In this document: in pieces, positions 21,915 to 29,457 of the stretch
How positions within the stretch are numbered: position 1 is the stretch's first letter
Layout: each line of letters starts with the position of its first letter
Source: Escherichia coli
GTDB lineage: Bacteria; Pseudomonadota; Gammaproteobacteria; Enterobacterales; Enterobacteriaceae
Strand: one strand, 5' to 3'
Length of the DNA: 64,000 nt
Assembly (NCBI RefSeq): GCF_011045215.1
Contig: NZ_CP049201.1
The notes under the pieces: generated by a model
What the model was told of the DNA's origin: nothing
Database searches by the model: none
Seen by the model: only the letters and a program-made list of their open reading frames with translations
Position numbers and translations under genes: made by a program

Positions 21915-22856
21915 ATGCGCGAAAAGGATTATGTCGTAATTATAGGTTCGGCGAATATTGATGTCGCCGGATATTCACATGAATCATTAAATTATGCGGA
22001 TTCAAATCCAGGTAAAATAAAATTTACGCCTGGTGGAGTAGGGCGAAATATTGCACAAAATCTGGCGTTGCTGGGTAACAAAGCCTGGCTACTGAGCGCA
22101 GTAGGCAGTGATTTTTATGGCCAATCGCTGCTAACGCAAACCAATCAATCTGGCGTTTATGTCGATAAATGCCTGATTATGCCGGGAGAAAATACGTCGA
22201 GCTATTTATCATTACTCGATAATACCGGTGAAATGCTGGTTGCTATAAATGACATGAATATTAGCAACGCTATTACAGCTGAATATCTCGCACAGCACCG
22301 TGAATTTATTCAGAGGGCAAAGGTCATTGTCGCGGACTGTAATATCAGTGAAGAGGCACTGGCATGGATTCTGGATAATGCCGCCAACGTACCCGTATTT
22401 GTCGATCCGGTTTCAGCGTGGAAATGTGTCAAAGTGCGCGACCGTCTAAATCAGATCCACACTCTGAAGCCAAACCGCCTTGAAGCGGAAACCCTGAGTG
22501 GGATAGCGCTGTCAGGGCGTGAAGATGTGGCAAAGGTTGCCGCCTGGTTCCATCAACATGGCCTGAACCGACTGGTATTGAGCATGGGCGGCGACGGCGT
22601 TTATTACAGTGATATCAGCGGTGAAAGTGGTTGGTCTGCGCCGATCAAAACCAATGTTATTAATGTTACCGGAGCGGGCGATGCCATGATGGCGGGACTT
22701 GCTTCGTGTTGGGTAGACGGAATGCCGTTTGCCGAATCTGTTCGTTTCGCACAGGGATGTTCGTCAATGGCGCTCTCCTGTGAATACACCAATAACCCCG
22801 ATTTATCGATTGCCAACGTTATATCGTTAGTGGAGAACGCAGAATGTCTGAATTAA
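21915..22856 (+). CDS. psuK: Pseudouridine kinase PsuK (YeiC), PfkB family
   Basis: 313-aa ORF; PfkB motifs (GGVGRNIAQNLALLG, GAGDAMMAG). Confidence 0.88.
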   Translation: MREKDYVVIIGSANIDVAGYSHESLNYADSNPGKIKFTPGGVGRNIAQNLALLGNKAWLLSAVGSDFYGQSLLTQTNQSGVYVDKCLIMPGENTSSYLSLLDNTGEMLVAINDMNISNAITAEYLAQHREFIQRAKVIVADCNISEEALAWILDNAANVPVFVDPVSAWKCVKVRDRLNQIHTLKPNRLEAETLSGIALSGREDVAKVAAWFHQHGLNRLVLSMGGDGVYYSDISGESGWSAPIKTNVINVTGAGDAMMAGLASCWVDGMPFAESVRFAQGCSSMALSCEYTNNPDLSIANVISLVENAECLN

Positions 22857-23782
22857 AAATTTCCCCTGAATTATTACAAATTTCCCCGGAAGTGCAGGAC
22901 GCTTTAAAAAACAAAAAACCGGTTGTGGCGCTGGAATCGACCATTATTTCTCACGGGATGCCGTTCCCACAAAATGCCCAGACCGCAATTGAAGTTGAAG
23001 AAACTATTCGTAAACAGGGCGCTGTACCTGCCACTATCGCCATTATTGGCGGCGTGATGAAAGTTGGTTTAAGCAAAGAAGAAATTGAATTACTGGGTCG
23101 TGAAGGGCATAACGTGACCAAAGTTAGTCGTCGCGATTTACCTTTTGTTGTTGCCGCCGGAAAAAATGGCGCAACCACTGTGGCTTCAACGATGATTATT
23201 GCGGCGCTTGCCGGAATTAAAGTATTTGCCACCGGGGGAATTGGTGGTGTGCATCGCGGGGCGGAACATACCTTCGATATTTCTGCCGATTTGCAAGAAC
23301 TGGCAAATACTAATGTCACCGTTGTTTGTGCCGGGGCGAAATCTATTCTCGATTTAGGATTAACCACTGAGTATTTAGAAACCTTCGGTGTGCCGTTAAT
23401 TGGCTATCAGACTAAAGCGCTGCCTGCGTTTTTCTGCCGTACCAGCCCGTTTGACGTCAGCATTCGTCTCGACAGCGCCAGTGAAATTGCCCGTGCAATG
23501 GCGGTGAAATGGCAAAGCGGGCTGAACGGTGGCCTCGTGGTAGCGAACCCGATCCCGGAACAGTTTGCGATGCCAGAACACACTATCAATGCGGCGATCG
23601 ATCAGGCGGTAGCTGAAGCTGAAGCGCAGGGTGTTATTGGTAAAGAAAGTACGCCATTCCTGCTGGCGCGCGTTGCTGAACTGACCGGCGGTGACAGCCT
23701 GAAATCCAACATTCAACTGGTGTTCAACAACGCCATTCTGGCGAGTGAAATTGCCAAAGAATACCAGCGTCTCGCGGGTTAA
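22844..23782 (+). CDS. psuG: Pseudouridine-5'-phosphate glycosidase PsuG (YeiN)
   Basis: 312-aa ORF overlapping the psuK 3' end by 13 nt; IndA/PsuG-family sequence. Confidence 0.88.
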   Translation: MSELKISPELLQISPEVQDALKNKKPVVALESTIISHGMPFPQNAQTAIEVEETIRKQGAVPATIAIIGGVMKVGLSKEEIELLGREGHNVTKVSRRDLPFVVAAGKNGATTVASTMIIAALAGIKVFATGGIGGVHRGAEHTFDISADLQELANTNVTVVCAGAKSILDLGLTTEYLETFGVPLIGYQTKALPAFFCRTSPFDVSIRLDSASEIARAMAVKWQSGLNGGLVVANPIPEQFAMPEHTINAAIDQAVAEAEAQGVIGKESTPFLLARVAELTGGDSLKSNIQLVFNNAILASEIAKEYQRLAG

Positions 23783-23875
23783 TTTCTGACGGGCAGAAAG
23801 CCGTCGCCCGTACTCATCAAACATACCAAAACCTGGCGCTGACGCCGGGTTTACTGGCATGAAGGGAAAATCATT

Positions 23876-25126
23876 ATGGACATAATGAGAAGTGTTGTGG
23901 GGATGGTGGTGTTACTGGCAATAGCATTTCTGTTGTCGGTAAATAAAAAGAGCATCAGTTTGCGCACGGTTGGAGCCGCACTGCTGCTGCAAATCGCTAT
24001 TGGTGGCATCATGCTCTATTTTCCGCCGGGAAAATGGGCTGTAGAACAGGCGGCATTAGGCGTTCATAAAGTGATGTCTTACAGTGATGCCGGTAGCGCC
24101 TTCATTTTTGGTTCGCTGGTCGGGCCGAAAATGGATGTCCTCTTTGACGGTGCGGGTTTTATCTTCGCCTTTCGCGTACTCCCGGCGATTATCTTCGCCA
24201 CTGCGCTCATTAGTCTGCTGTACTACATTGGCGTGATGGGGCTGCTGATTCGCATCCTTGGCAGCATTTTCCAGAAAGCCCTCAACATCAGCAAAATCGA
24301 ATCTTTTGTTGCGGTTACCACTATTTTCCTCGGGCAAAATGAGATCCCGGCGATCGTTAAACCGTTTATCGATCGCATGAATCGCAACGAGTTGTTTACC
24401 GCAATTTGTAGCGGGATGGCGTCCATTGCGGGTTCGATGATGATTGGTTATGCCGGAATGGGCGTACCAATTGACTACCTGTTGGCGGCATCGCTGATGG
24501 CGATCCCCGGCGGTATTTTGTTTGCACGTATTCTTAGTCCGGCAACCGAGCCTTCGCAGGTCACATTTGAAAATCTGTCGTTCAGTGAAACGCCGCCAAA
24601 AAGCTTTATCGAAGCGGCGGCGAGCGGTGCGATGACCGGGTTGAAAATCGCCGCCGGTGTGGCGACGGTGGTAATGGCGTTTGTCGCAATTATTGCGCTG
24701 ATTAATGGCATTATCGGCGGAATTGGCGGCTGGTTTGGTTTTACCAATGCTTCTCTGGAAAGTATTTTTGGCTATGTGCTGGCACCGCTGGCGTGGATCA
24801 TGGGTGTGGACTGGAGTGATGCCAACCTTGCGGGTAGCCTGATTGGGCAGAAACTGGCGATTAACGAATTCGTCGCTTACCTGAGTTTCTCCCCATACCT
24901 GCAAACGGGCGGTACGCTGGAAGTGAAAACCATTGCGATTATCTCCTTTGCGCTTTGTGGTTTTGCTAACTTTGGTTCTATCGGTGTTGTCGTTGGGGCA
25001 TTTTCGGCTATTTCGCCAAAACGTGCACCGGAAATCGCTCAGCTTGGTTTACGGGCGCTGGCAGCAGCAACGCTTTCCAACCTGATGAGCGCGACCATTG
25101 CCGGGTTCTTTATTGGTTTAGCTTGA
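23876..25126 (+). CDS. psuT: Nucleoside (pseudouridine) transporter PsuT (YeiM), NupC/CNT family
   Basis: 416-aa polytopic ORF; paralogous to nupX in this window (mostly identical alignment by eye). Confidence 0.88.
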   Translation: MDIMRSVVGMVVLLAIAFLLSVNKKSISLRTVGAALLLQIAIGGIMLYFPPGKWAVEQAALGVHKVMSYSDAGSAFIFGSLVGPKMDVLFDGAGFIFAFRVLPAIIFATALISLLYYIGVMGLLIRILGSIFQKALNISKIESFVAVTTIFLGQNEIPAIVKPFIDRMNRNELFTAICSGMASIAGSMMIGYAGMGVPIDYLLAASLMAIPGGILFARILSPATEPSQVTFENLSFSETPPKSFIEAAASGAMTGLKIAAGVATVVMAFVAIIALINGIIGGIGGWFGFTNASLESIFGYVLAPLAWIMGVDWSDANLAGSLIGQKLAINEFVAYLSFSPYLQTGGTLEVKTIAIISFALCGFANFGSIGVVVGAFSAISPKRAPEIAQLGLRALAAATLSNLMSATIAGFFIGLA

Positions 25127-25193: not shown

Positions 25194-25853
25194 TTACTGC
25201 ATCATCCCGGAGAATTTATTCTCCGGGTCCATCTCCAGCGCCAGCCCTGACAACTGCTTTCTGTTTTTAATTAGATATCCTTTCTTGCTTTTAATTAATA
25301 AACCGTCGTGAATGAATTGCGCAAGAACATATAAAAGATGTCGATAAGAAACGCCTAAATACTCTGCCGCTTGCGTATGCTTTTCGTGATAAAGATCACC
25401 TTCTTGTGAGAGTAATATAAATGCTGCCAGGCGATTCACTAACGGAAATGATTGATTCTGAGTTAAAGAAACAATATTACGATAATTTTTATGACTTAAG
25501 GTGACGCAAAGTTTTCGTAAAAATAGGGTATCGTTTAATAACAGCGGACGGTAATGTTTCATAGGGAGCGCAAGGCACCAACACTCTTCAATCGCCTGTA
25601 CTGCACGTGGTTCATGGTCTTTATCGATTAACTCAATCTCGCCAATAAAACAGGGGGCGGCAAAGAAATCGATCAGCGACACGCGACCATTAGCTAGCGT
25701 GGCGTAAAGCCTGGCGCGGCCTCGCGTCAGGTAAAACAGCCAGGACGGCTGTTGCCCTTCCTGCACAATGTAGTCACGCGCTAAAAAATGAAACAGCCGC
25801 GTATCGGCTGAAACATCCGTTAAAAAGCAATCCTTAAACGCGGATTCACTCAT
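25194..25853 (-). CDS. yeiL: Crp/Fnr-family transcriptional regulator YeiL
   Basis: ORF 25194..25892; start at the internal ATG ([11 protein letters not shown]...), giving 219 aa; cNMP-binding-like N-terminus and C-terminal HTH. Confidence 0.85.
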
Positions 25854-26021
25854 CAATTGCAGCTTAAGATCATTATTGTGGATTTCTTTCACGATGTTTA
25901 TCCGCTATGAGATTTCTCATATTTAGCATACGTACGCTGTTGTTAAGATTCAATCATCGGCCCGGTCGAATTTTCTTTGCTGTAGAAAAAATAACGCAAC
26001 TGGAAACAGAGGAAATAAACA

Positions 26022-26963
26022 ATGGAAAAGAGAAAAATTATTCTGGATTGTGATCCGGGTCATGATGATGCTATTGCAATGATGATGGCAGCGAAACATC
26101 CGGCAATAGATTTATTAGGCATCACTATTGTAGCGGGTAATCAGACGCTTGATAAAACATTAATTAATGGCCTGAATGTTTGCCAGAAACTGGAGATTAA
26201 TGTTCCGGTTTATGCGGGGATGCCGCAGCCCATTATGCGTCAACAAATCGTTGCCGATAATATTCACGGTGAAACCGGACTGGATGGCCCGGTATTCGAG
26301 CCGCTGACCCGCCAGGCAGAAAGCACTCATGCGGTGAAATACATCATTGATACCCTGATGGCAAGCGATGGCGATATCACTCTGGTGCCGGTTGGTCCGC
26401 TTTCAAATATCGCGGTGGCAATGCGTATGCAACCCGCGATCCTGCCCAAAATCCGTGAAATTGTGCTAATGGGCGGCGCTTACGGTACAGGCAACTTCAC
26501 GCCATCTGCCGAGTTCAACATCTTTGCTGACCCGGAAGCCGCACGCGTGGTGTTCACCTCTGGCGTTCCATTAGTGATGATGGGCCTCGATCTTACCAAC
26601 CAGACCGTTTGCACCCCGGACGTAATTGCTCGGATGGAAAGGGCAGGCGGCCCTGCCGGAGAGCTGTTCAGCGACATCATGAACTTCACTCTCAAAACGC
26701 AGTTCGAAAACTACGGCCTGGCTGGCGGCCCGGTGCACGACGCCACCTGCATCGGTTATCTGATTAACCCTGATGGCATTAAAACCCAGGAGATGTACGT
26801 CGAAGTGGACGTCAACAGTGGCCCTTGTTATGGGCGTACCGTCTGCGACGAGCTGGGCGTTCTTGGCAAGCCCGCTAATACCAAAGTCGGCATCACTATT
26901 GATACCGACTGGTTCTGGGGCTTAGTCGAAGAGTGCGTGCGCGGCTACATCAAAACCCATTAA
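26022..26963 (+). CDS. rihB: Pyrimidine-specific ribonucleoside hydrolase RihB (YeiK)
   Basis: 313-aa ORF with the inosine-uridine nucleoside hydrolase signature DCDPGHDDA near the N-terminus. Confidence 0.92.
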
Positions 26964-27062: not shown

Positions 27063-28313
27063 ATGGATGTCATGAGAAGTGTTCTGGGAATGGTGGTATT
27101 GCTGACGATTGCGTTTTTACTGTCAGTAAACAAGAAGAAGATCAGCCTGCGTACCGTTGGCGCGGCGTTAGTGTTACAGGTCGTGATTGGCGGCATTATG
27201 CTTTGGTTACCGCCAGGGCGTTGGGTCGCTGAAAAAGTCGCTTTTGGCGTGCATAAAGTGATGGCGTACAGCGACGCGGGTAGCGCATTTATCTTCGGTT
27301 CTCTGGTCGGACCGAAAATGGACACCTTATTTGATGGCGCAGGATTTATCTTTGGTTTCAGAGTATTACCGGCAATTATCTTCGTCACCGCGCTGGTGAG
27401 TATTCTCTATTACATCGGTGTGATGGGGATCTTAATTCGCATTCTCGGCGGTATCTTCCAGAAAGCATTAAATATCAGCAAGATCGAGTCATTCGTCGCG
27501 GTCACTACCATTTTCCTCGGGCAAAACGAAATTCCGGCAATCGTCAAACCCTTTATCGATCGGCTGAATCGCAATGAATTATTTACAGCGATTTGTAGTG
27601 GCATGGCCTCAATTGCCGGTTCGACAATGATTGGTTACGCCGCACTGGGCGTACCTGTGGAATATTTGCTGGCGGCATCGTTAATGGCGATCCCAGGCGG
27701 GATCTTGTTTGCCCGCCTGTTAAGCCCGGCTACGGAATCTTCGCAGGTTTCTTTTAATAACCTCTCTTTCACCGAAACACCGCCAAAAAGCATTATTGAA
27801 GCCGCCGCGACAGGGGCAATGACCGGGCTGAAAATCGCTGCGGGTGTGGCAACAGTGGTGATGGCATTTGTTGCCATCATTGCGTTAATTAACGGTATTA
27901 TCGGCGGCGTTGGCGGCTGGTTTGGTTTTGAACATGCCTCGCTGGAGTCCATTTTAGGTTATCTGCTGGCCCCACTGGCGTGGGTAATGGGTGTTGACTG
28001 GACTGATGCGAATCTTGCCGGGAGTTTGATTGGACAGAAACTGGCAATAAATGAATTTGTCGCTTATCTCAATTTCTCACCCTATCTGCAAACGGCTGGC
28101 ACTCTGGATGCTAAAACCGTGGCGATTATTTCCTTCGCGTTGTGCGGTTTCGCTAACTTTGGTTCTATCGGGGTGGTGGTGGGGGCGTTTTCTGCGGTTG
28201 CGCCACACCGTGCGCCGGAAATCGCCCAGCTTGGTTTACGCGCGCTGGCGGCGGCGACACTTTCTAACCTGATGAGTGCCACCATTGCCGGGTTCTTTAT
28301 TGGTTTAGCGTAG
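27063..28313 (+). CDS. nupX: Nucleoside transporter NupX (YeiJ), NupC/CNT family
   Basis: 416-aa ORF, collinear paralogue of psuT (MDVMRSVLGMVVLL... versus MDIMRSVVGMVVLL...). Confidence 0.88.
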   Translation: MDVMRSVLGMVVLLTIAFLLSVNKKKISLRTVGAALVLQVVIGGIMLWLPPGRWVAEKVAFGVHKVMAYSDAGSAFIFGSLVGPKMDTLFDGAGFIFGFRVLPAIIFVTALVSILYYIGVMGILIRILGGIFQKALNISKIESFVAVTTIFLGQNEIPAIVKPFIDRLNRNELFTAICSGMASIAGSTMIGYAALGVPVEYLLAASLMAIPGGILFARLLSPATESSQVSFNNLSFTETPPKSIIEAAATGAMTGLKIAAGVATVVMAFVAIIALINGIIGGVGGWFGFEHASLESILGYLLAPLAWVMGVDWTDANLAGSLIGQKLAINEFVAYLNFSPYLQTAGTLDAKTVAIISFALCGFANFGSIGVVVGAFSAVAPHRAPEIAQLGLRALAAATLSNLMSATIAGFFIGLA

Positions 28314-28368: not shown

Positions 28369-29457
28369 TTACACCATTGGCACTAATGAAAGCGCGTTAT
28401 CGGCAGACAGGGTAGGGTTGTTTAAGCTGCCGCTGGCGCGTGAAATTGCCGCGCAGGCCATCGCAAAACGGGCGCTGTCACGGAAATTGTTTCCTTCCAG
28501 AAAGCTATATACCAGGCCCGCCATAAAACCATCGTCAGCACCAAAACTGTCTACTGTCGTATGCGCTGGTGCGGTCAGCAAAAATTGTTCTCCATCCTTT
28601 TCGCTGCAATAAACTGACTCATCGGGCAAATAAACAAACAGTTGCTGAACACCTTGCTGATGCAACGCATTCACTGCAGCATTACGGTCAGCATCGCTGG
28701 TGATCGCCTGTCCCCATAAAATTTCCAGCTCCGGTAAAGTGGGTTTCAGGGTGTGAATATGCGCCAGCCAGTGTTTGATTTTGCCCGCTTTGAATTCTGA
28801 AACGGTATCGACAAACACCGGGATCTCACCAGCGAGGGTAAAGACCCATTCCAGCGCCTCGGCTGTCAGGTTGCAATCAGCCAGTACCACGCCCGCATGA
28901 CGAAGTAAATCGCGCGACCCGTTCAATAATTGCGGCGATAACTGTTCCAGCAGATGGGTATCGTTAATCGCCAACACGGTTTCATCGTCTCGATTGGCAA
29001 TTGCCAGATACGTCGATGTGCTTTGGCCATGTAAACGAACGCAGCCGGAGACATTCACGCCGGCGCGGCGCGTTTCTTCCAGGAGCATTTCGCCATAAAA
29101 GTCATCGCCAATCACTGAAAGCAAATGGACGTCACGGCCTAACAGCGCCAGATTGTGGGCGATGTTGCGTCCCACGCCGCCCGCTGAGCAATGAATTGTA
29201 CCGGGATGAGAAGCCGATTGCGGGTAACGGATATCCGCCATCCCGCGAATATCCATATTGATTGTCCCCACCACTACGCAGTATTCCTGCTCGGTGAGAA
29301 TGTAACCTTTGCCTTTAATCCGGCCTTTGCGCATTAAATCCATAATATGCGCCGCAACGCGCGAACGGCTGATTTGCAGCATGTCCGCAATTTCGTTCTG
29401 CTGAATCAGCGGGTTACGCCGTAAAATTGCAAGGATCTCCTTTTCCCGGTTATTCAT
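28369..29457 (-). CDS. yeiI: Putative HTH-fused PfkB-family sugar/nucleoside kinase YeiI
   Basis: 362-aa ORF; N-terminal HTH-like segment (EKEILAILRRNPLIQQNEIADMLQISRSRV), then a PfkB kinase domain sharing the GGVGRNIAHNLALLG motif with PsuK. Confidence 0.85.
   Translation of the reverse strand: MNNREKEILAILRRNPLIQQNEIADMLQISRSRVAAHIMDLMRKGRIKGKGYILTEQEYCVVVGTINMDIRGMADIRYPQSASHPGTIHCSAGGVGRNIAHNLALLGRDVHLLSVIGDDFYGEMLLEETRRAGVNVSGCVRLHGQSTSTYLAIANRDDETVLAINDTHLLEQLSPQLLNGSRDLLRHAGVVLADCNLTAEALEWVFTLAGEIPVFVDTVSEFKAGKIKHWLAHIHTLKPTLPELEILWGQAITSDADRNAAVNALHQQGVQQLFVYLPDESVYCSEKDGEQFLLTAPAHTTVDSFGADDGFMAGLVYSFLEGNNFRDSARFAMACAAISRASGSLNNPTLSADNALSLVPMV

Follow-up and report, generated by a model that had tools for sequence, protein, structure and literature searches.

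What is the function of the short inverted repeat between the divergent genes yeiL and rihB of Escherichia coli? The repeat lies in a stretch of 64,000 nucleotides from contig NZ_CP049201.1 (assembly GCF_011045215.1), hereafter the window. On one side is yeiL, encoding a regulator of the CRP/FNR family, and on the other is rihB, encoding a pyrimidine nucleoside hydrolase. Of the three CRP/FNR paralogues in E. coli, YeiL is understood least, and it is still counted among the regulators of unknown function. It has been described as a distinct member of the family with a proposed role in post-exponential nitrogen starvation (PMC3590769) and appears in a list of five iron-sulphur regulators of E. 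coli (PMC7671543); its gene is listed as a target of Lrp (PMC2374795). As of 2019, RegulonDB assigned to YeiL one site, one target operon (yeiL) and one interaction (PMC9308461), and our literature search found neither a link between YeiL and rihB nor a motif like the one described here. We propose, with a probability of roughly 0.6, that the repeat, which we call the YeiL box, is a YeiL operator common to two overlapping back-to-back promoters, from which YeiL would probably activate rihB-nupX and repress yeiL. As a cis-element, the box is most probably a CRP/FNR-type operator with a half-site of its own, and it offers a concrete link between YeiL and rihB-nupX.

The initial annotation described a perfect 14-bp palindrome, ATGAGATTTCTCAT, at 25907-25920. 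Its position stands, while its perfection does not, as the reverse complement is ATGAGAAATCTCAT and both central bases differ. The repeat has arms of 6 bp, which can be lengthened to 7 bp, on either side of a 2-bp centre that is not palindromic. The resulting 16-bp box reads TATGAGATTTCTCATA on the + strand and TATGAGAAATCTCATA in the yeiL orientation; its dyad centre falls between 25913 and 25914, and its invariant 12-bp core occupies 25908-25919. Viewed alone, without comparison, the box is unremarkable and near chance level. The window contains seven 7+2+7 inverted repeats, against about 3.9 expected for this one fixed spacer, and 28 inverted repeats with spacers of 0-4. Two of the other 7+2+7 repeats, GGAGAATTTATTCTCC in the final yeiL codons (25209-25224) and CATTATGGACATAATG across the psuT start codon (23872-23887), are consistent with chance.

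We scanned 80 loci identified by YeiL alignment, with one genome per species, and counted a match when the 12-bp core, with at most two mismatches, lay within 200 nt upstream of a yeiL homologue. The core TGAGAwwTCTCA was found upstream of yeiL at 76 of the 80 loci, in addition to E. coli, with 58 exact matches; the chance expectation is about 0.02 per locus. These loci belong to Enterobacterales, Enterococcus, Lactobacillaceae, Lachnospiraceae, Erysipelotrichaceae, Bacillaceae, Paenibacillaceae, Mammaliicoccus, Sebaldella and Pelosinus, and YeiL identity among the sampled loci falls to about 40%. Regarding the four loci that gave no match, one has just 13 nt of upstream sequence (L030), one carries a truncated gene (L064), one has a decayed right arm (TATGAGTTTTATTACA; L078) and one has no box (L074). 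In all Enterobacterales genera sampled, TATGAGAAATCTCATA is positioned 13-16 nt before the yeiL start codon, and the same 16 letters are present in Hungatella and Enterococcus, though the neighbouring sequence is unalignable. Among the 50 loci that bear a box and whose protein match begins at residue 1, 43 have the box centre 20-26 nt from the start codon, and distant homologues have the box 45-150 nt from it.

For a non-redundant view, sequences more than 80% identical were dropped, leaving 59, whose consensus is TATGAGAwwTCTCAyA. The information content is 1.6-2.0 bits at positions -8 to -2 and +2 to +6, 1.0-1.4 bits at the two central positions and at +7/+8, and about 0.1 in the flanks. Positions ±7 and ±8, which lie outside the search pattern, are likewise conserved. 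The central pair is AA in 39 sequences, TT in 13, TA in 5 and AT in 2; thus, an imperfect centre is typical, and its orientation relative to the gene flips. Within the species, 5396 of 5426 complete E. coli genomes carry the 51-nt region, and the sampled Escherichia and E. coli variants have substitutions in the promoter spacer and none in the box. On this comparative evidence, the box is a real, deeply conserved cis-element. This is the opposite of the loss of the dyad from orthologous regions that the initial annotation had named as grounds for abandoning its proposal.

Two loci show unusual arrangements. The sole locus seen with a double operator (L126, 537-574) carries two oppositely oriented boxes, separated by 6 nt, upstream of a YeiL homologue of 36% identity. 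In E. coli 74-2 (L083; NZ_CP050044.1, 1668614-1669445), an IS1 element abuts the yeiL-side edge of the box and the sequence resumes at GAGATTTCTCATA; yeiL is missing and rihB is kept, making this strain a natural yeiL-null, half-box variant.

Which protein would bind the box? The only gene common to all loci is yeiL. As the initial annotation had stated, YeiL is a Crp/Fnr-family regulator: it carries the Pfam domains cNMP_binding (PF00027) and HTH_Crp_2 (PF13545), and all tested homologues fall within the NCBIfam YeiL subfamily NF007707, whose cut-off of 180 bits they exceed with scores of 264-416. Essentially no variation is seen in the recognition helix, GV(S/T)YRHLL(Y/F), which is as constant as the box. 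When YeiL is aligned with a CRP-family protein of solved structure, its SYRHLLY falls opposite helix SRETVSR, which is consistent with a different base specificity. The single clearly deviant helix (SYRHLQEV; L063) is accompanied by a symmetrical change in both arms, TAGGAGA...TCTCCTA, which suggests that helix and box change together, although this is a lone case and it is weakened by another locus (L076). Solved structures offered distant CRP relatives only (best E = 9e-5), and no YeiL-DNA complex was found among them. Taken together, the box has the TGA-N6-TCA symmetry of CRP/FNR operators, and 13 nt away begins the gene of a regulator with a cNMP-type sensor and a C-terminal Crp-type helix-turn-helix. 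From these comparisons we infer that YeiL is the protein that binds the box, which is most probably its operator. The proposal made in the initial annotation, a candidate YeiL operator for autoregulation and/or for rihB-nupX, thereby gains support from the near-invariance of the box beside yeiL amid diverged flanks, from the constant presence of yeiL and from the equally invariant recognition helix.

The signal sensed by YeiL may be related to redox or iron. Between E. coli and Enterococcus, Cys81, Cys104, Trp105 and Cys106 show no variation and Cys129 almost none (numbering of the 232-residue form). These conserved cysteines would fit the proposed iron-sulphur or redox sensor. In Lactobacillus buchneri, a species that may or may not carry yeiL, expression of the rihB-permease-nupC genes dropped to 0.5-0.6x after aeration (PMC4521753).

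We located promoter-like hexamers by anchoring the 59 non-redundant lineages on the dyad centre (Table 1). In 39 of the 59 lineages, the yeiL strand has a -10-like hexamer whose end is 11-12 nt from the dyad centre, where offsets outside the two promoter blocks mostly give 0-3, and TTGAAT or TTGCAT is aligned at the position of the yeiL -35 element across phyla. The position of this -10 predicts a yeiL start at about 25918, the G of TATG, inside the box, so that the box would cover about -3 to +13. The yeiL Shine-Dalgarno is GGA (25903-25901), and relatives have GGGAA or GGAGG there. On the opposite strand, a -10-like hexamer occurs at offsets 30/31 in 52 of the 59 lineages (offsets outside the two promoter blocks mostly 0-5); in relatives it reads TATAAT (many Firmicutes), TATGAT (Citrobacter) or TATGCT. 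It predicts a rihB start at about 25956, placing the box centre at -42.5 in E. coli. Across lineages, the centre is at -41.5 relative to the predicted divergent start in 27 and at -42.5 in 25. In CRP/FNR-type activation, -41.5 is the class II position, from which most members of the family activate. The -35 region of rihB in E. coli, ATTTAG, is poor. The two core promoters interlock, with the yeiL -35 over the rihB -10 and the rihB -35 region over the yeiL -10.

An FNR-like site lies over the predicted yeiL -35 and rihB -10; it is kept in Enterobacterales and not in Firmicutes. FNR is said to repress yeiL, and this site could be the route of that repression.

Table 1 Features in and around the yeiL-rihB intergenic region (window coordinates)
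Feature	Position	Strand	Remarks
psuG	22844-23782	+	gene neighbourhood
psuT	23876-25126	+	gene neighbourhood
yeiL, CRP/FNR-family regulator	25194-25892	-	232-residue form from GTG 25892; open reading frame, Pfam, NF007707
yeiL 5' untranslated region (predicted)	25893-25918	-	26 nt; includes right half of box and weak Shine-Dalgarno
YeiL box (candidate)	25906-25921	none	TATGAGA-TT-TCTCATA; 7-bp arms, 2-bp A/T centre
yeiL -10 TATGCT (predicted)	25925-25930	-	3 nt before box; same-strand -10-like hexamer in 39/59
FNR-like site TTGTTAAGATTCAA	25940-25953	none	other strand TTGAA-TCTT-AACAA; 8/10 of TTGAT-N4-ATCAA
rihB -10 TAAGAT (predicted)	25944-25949	+	opposite-strand -10-like hexamer in 52/59
yeiL -35 TTGAAT (predicted)	25948-25953	-	17 bp upstream of -10; TTGnnn at offsets 34-36 in 40/59
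rihB, pyrimidine nucleoside hydrolase, divergent neighbour	26022-26963	+	IU_nuc_hydro, E = 4.5e-98; presumed chief target of the box
nupX, nucleoside transporter	27063-28313	+	99 bp downstream of rihB, same strand
yeiI	28369-29457	-	gene neighbourhood

The transcript starts, and the direction of regulation at both promoters, are what we infer from this layout. Since the box is centred at -41.5/-42.5 of a predicted promoter that has a -10 and no good -35, active YeiL would most likely turn rihB on. Since it also lies over the predicted yeiL start, autorepression would be expected. Our model suggests that one YeiL dimer would bind TATGAGA-ww-TCTCATA, combining the TGA-N6-TCA geometry of the family with helix SYRHLLY instead of the SRETVGR of CRP. 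From the class II position, active YeiL would recruit polymerase to rihB(-nupX), and the bound dimer, together with the polymerase drawn to the rihB promoter, would shut off yeiL. Inactive YeiL would leave the reasonably good yeiL promoter free, so that the arrangement would act as a switch.

Several observations speak against this model. The literature searched contained no electrophoretic mobility-shift, footprint or chromatin immunoprecipitation data for YeiL, which is also not mentioned in the ChIP-exo compendium of Gao 2021. Neither yeiL nor rihB had an entry in the published start-site tables consulted (Kim 2012, Ettwiller 2016, Myers 2013). In the window, no second box was found at up to two mismatches, including upstream of the psu genes or yeiI. 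The rihB -10 of E. coli, TAAGAT, is weaker than those of its relatives. The RefSeq product name of K-12 YeiL, 'activator', conflicts with autorepression. Moreover, a yeiL-lacZ fusion reportedly showed positive autoregulation; set against the predicted autorepression, this would mean either that the start used in E. coli differs or that the reported effect is indirect.

The reverse test speaks both for and against the model. We searched metagenomes for the exact 16-mer, with Y at position 15, and at least 120 stretches matched. Among the matches listed, a YeiL homologue adjoins the 16-mer in 21 of 120 stretches, with the matched YeiL segment beginning within 150 nt of it in 19 of those 21, and no YeiL is found nearby in the other 99. 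Also among the matches listed, 75 of these 99 lie inside long stop-free stretches, as expected of chance matches in a very large collection, and about 20 represent a recurrent terminator hairpin, AAAAAACTCCG-box-CGGAGTTTTTT, from an organism of 61% G+C. Thus, the 16-mer alone is not diagnostic, and its enrichment beside yeiL, a rare gene, is very large.

The hairpins deserve a description of their own. In stretches L087, L090, L095, L098, L110, L113, L122, L125 and others, the 16-mer makes up the top of a bidirectional terminator-like hairpin, AAAAAACTCCG-TATGAGAWWTCTCATA-CGGAGTTTTTT, with no YeiL nearby. A related GGGGGG-box-CCCCC hairpin occurs in two more. In one of these (L171) a RihB-like gene of 40% identity follows about 450 nt downstream of the hairpin, and in the other (L135) a RihB-like gene (34%) is about 1.4 kb off.

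Could YeiL bind the box and repress both promoters instead, occluding the rihB -35 and the yeiL start until an inducer releases it? At the predicted rihB promoter the box does touch the -35 region, and at the yeiL promoter it touches the start. The divergent -10 of Firmicutes, a perfect TATAAT, might need no activator. In laboratory K-12, rihB is said to be silent. Nevertheless, the spacing argues for activation: the -41.5/-42.5 offset is kept within 1 bp in 52 of the 59 lineages, a constancy that activation needs for helix-face precision, whereas occlusion would tolerate variation. The poor divergent -35, the 'activator' name in RefSeq and the usual behaviour of the family at this position point the same way. 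We therefore consider dual repression unlikely but a live alternative, and retain activation of rihB with repression of yeiL as the preferred model.

A different protein might bind the box, or the box might be intrinsic to the bidirectional promoter and travel with the cassette. The fixed spacing between the box and both core promoters would be compatible with a promoter-intrinsic role, and the assignment of YeiL as binder comes from sequence comparison. Against these readings, no other gene is common to all loci, a strictly two-fold symmetric 16-bp element is not a known core-promoter type, and the symmetry and scaffold fit a dimer of a CRP/FNR protein, of which one is encoded 13 nt away. Both possibilities seem to us quite improbable.

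It is very improbable that the box is a site for CRP (or FNR), with rihB as an ordinary catabolite-controlled class II promoter and YeiL not the binder. Such a site would account for the agreement with the CRP core at 8 of 10 positions with the right spacing (10 of 10 in Lysinibacillus) and for the class II position. By contrast, the box is kept beside yeiL in Enterococcus, Lactobacillaceae and clostridia, which are not known to have cAMP-CRP. This retention in phyla without CRP, always next to yeiL, makes a CRP site unlikely. In addition, the inner GA/TC is invariant, the G critical for CRP is replaced by A in 55 of the 59 lineages, and the match to FNR is 6 of 10. A genome-wide in vitro CRP footprint table lists 2255813, inside yeiL, and nothing at 22552xx, the box being at 2255287-2255302 in K-12 coordinates.

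The repeat might also act as RNA, forming a 5' hairpin of the yeiL mRNA by the ribosome-binding site that controls stability or translation. Its location, 13-16 nt before the start codon and immediately ahead of the Shine-Dalgarno, would suit this role; a 6-bp stem with a 4-nt loop is possible, and the identical 16-mer is found within a terminator hairpin of an unrelated organism. We find this reading hardly credible. The repeat folds no better than its shuffles (z = -1.08; 34 of 200 shuffles fold as well), and no Rfam match to the region was found. No covariation is seen at pairs ±2 to ±6 (complementary in 56-59 of 59), positions ±7 are non-complementary in 25 of 59, and about a quarter of lineages have the asymmetric centre turned round with respect to the gene. 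Distant homologues, with the box 45-150 nt from the start codon, do not keep it by the ribosome-binding site. Furthermore, the conserved -10 puts the transcript start in the left arm, so that the transcript would contain only part of the stem. Lastly, a functionless chance repeat, for which one could cite the seven repeats in the window where about four are expected, has a negligible probability and is refuted by the near-invariance of the box at 76 of 80 loci across phyla with diverged flanks.

The position of the box relative to yeiL depends on the start codon chosen. In the annotation of K-12 (and in UniProt), yeiL encodes 219 amino acids from ATG 25853, and in that of PGAP it encodes 232 from GTG 25892. 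In an alignment of 21 orthologues, the 13 extra N-terminal residues, MKEIxNxxLKQQL, are kept from E. coli to Enterococcus, Met1 and Lys2 are invariant, and Met14 of E. coli is Ile or Leu in all others. The NF007707 profile (416 bits) begins at residue 1 of the 232-residue form. The conserved N-terminus, the variable Met14 and the profile start together favour GTG 25892, and the K-12 yeiL start is probably annotated 13 codons too far downstream. With this start, the 16-bp box ends 13 nt before the start codon, not 54 nt. The distances given in the initial annotation, about 55 bp to yeiL and about 100 bp to rihB, are thus right under the K-12 annotation (54 nt to ATG 25853 and 101 nt to ATG 26022); the first of them does not survive the start favoured by conservation. 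The favoured start bears on any expression of the YeiL protein.

Two other features of this segment were noted. A CRP-like TGTGG-N7-TCACG sequence lies over the yeiL GTG start (25877-25893) with its spacing off by one; it is probably a coding by-product, its bases encoding the conserved N-terminus. A candidate from a promoter scan, TAAACA-17-AATAAT, with a start at about 25865 in the conserved first 13 codons, was rejected: its hexamers are not conserved in orthologues, and it would be specific to E. coli at best. The yeiL-rihB region is 100% identical to that of E. coli strain WCHEC020031, and the intergenic region has the K-12 sequence. Downstream, rihB and nupX are presumably co-transcribed.

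The genes linked to the box point to its function. The divergent neighbour of yeiL is a rihB orthologue (64-100% identity) at 49 of the 80 loci, including those of Enterococcus, Lactobacillaceae, Hungatella and Sebaldella; rihB is followed by nupX in Enterobacterales loci and by NupC-type homologues in Lactobacillaceae. Beside distant yeiL homologues, the divergent gene encodes an S-adenosylmethionine (SAM)-dependent methyltransferase, an MFS or nucleoside-symporter-like transporter, an NT5C nucleotidase, a YdcZ exporter, a U32 peptidase or an MscS channel. In many Lachnospiraceae/Clostridia (L047-L061), it is the methyltransferase, of about 210 residues (MEQxxYWNxVxxxKxFTTPF...), and not rihB. 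RihB of E. coli shares 65-85% identity with that of Firmicutes/Fusobacteria (L001-L046, L049, L063, L072 and L073; about 1900-2900 in each locus): 85% in Hungatella, 76-77% in Enterococcus and 70-74% in Lactobacillaceae, where YeiL shares 47-64%. As RihB is better conserved than YeiL across phyla, this suggests that the yeiL-rihB pair was transferred horizontally as a unit.

More tentatively, yeiL, box and rihB may form a self-contained cassette that moved horizontally among Proteobacteria, Firmicutes and Fusobacteria with its operator near-intact. The box would then be the third specificity of the E. coli CRP/FNR trio, and YeiL the missing rihB activator, explaining the silence of rihB in laboratory E. 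coli. We regard this broader scenario as possible, somewhat short of an even chance. If true, it would tie pyrimidine nucleoside salvage to a redox or iron signal and not to the nucleoside itself, and the retention of regulator, operator and target across phyla would be a clean example of a regulatory module transferred whole. More immediately, the 16-bp box with its invariant core provides a concrete reagent for binding and reporter work and a motif for regulon scans. The predicted class II geometry and the frequent rihB neighbour suggest that what the box controls is the hydrolysis and uptake of pyrimidine nucleosides, and the link between YeiL and rihB, if true, is a testable explanation of poor rihB expression.

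How does the box compare with known systems? The YeiL site in RegulonDB belongs to the same promoter region and the same regulator; it may be the dyad or the FNR-like site. The core consensus is TGTGA-N6-TCACA for CRP and TTGAT-N4-ATCAA for FNR, and a common scaffold underlies both and the box: gTGA-N6-TCAc for CRP, tTGA-N6-TCAa for FNR and aTGA-N6-TCAt here. The initial annotation had found no match to the canonical cores. This holds in the strict sense for both, as E. coli has TATGA/TCATA and so lacks the G at the second half-site position of CRP; it overlooks the shared TGA-N6-TCA scaffold, the agreement of TATGA-N6-TCATA with CRP at 8 of 10 core positions, the correct N6 spacing and the A/T-rich spacer. 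The Lysinibacillus variants of the box, TGTGAGATATCTCACA, agree with CRP at 10 of 10 core positions. The likeness to CRP class II promoters extends to the box centre at -41.5/-42.5 of a predicted promoter with a poor -35 and to the adjacent regulator, which has the same domain architecture. Unlike CRP sites, the box has A in place of the critical G (tGtga) at position -7 in 55 of 59 lineages, and its invariant inner GA/TC at ±3 and ±2 lies outside the CRP core consensus. Phyla that lack CRP have the box too, and it appears to be the operator of one locus, not a site of a global regulon.

With FNR sites, the box shares the 14-bp 5-4-5 layout and the TGA-N6-TCA scaffold. Its place over the predicted start of the yeiL gene itself resembles FNR autorepression, where an FNR box lies over the fnr start, and YeiL, like FNR, is thought to carry an iron-sulphur cluster, with Cys81, Cys104 and Cys106 invariant. 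In contrast, the box matches the FNR consensus at only 6 of 10 positions (ATGAG/CTCAT, 3 of 5 per half-site), short of a canonical site, and the FNR helix residues E209, S212 and R213 correspond to R, L and Y in YeiL. The FNR-like site, 33 bp away, is distinct from the box.

Finally, the arrangement resembles the divergent cassettes of LysR-style regulators, in which one shared site serves overlapping back-to-back promoters in a short intergenic region, with activation of the target and autorepression of the regulator, as predicted here. It differs from them in protein family and in site geometry, and in that the whole cassette, including the operator, is here kept across phyla.

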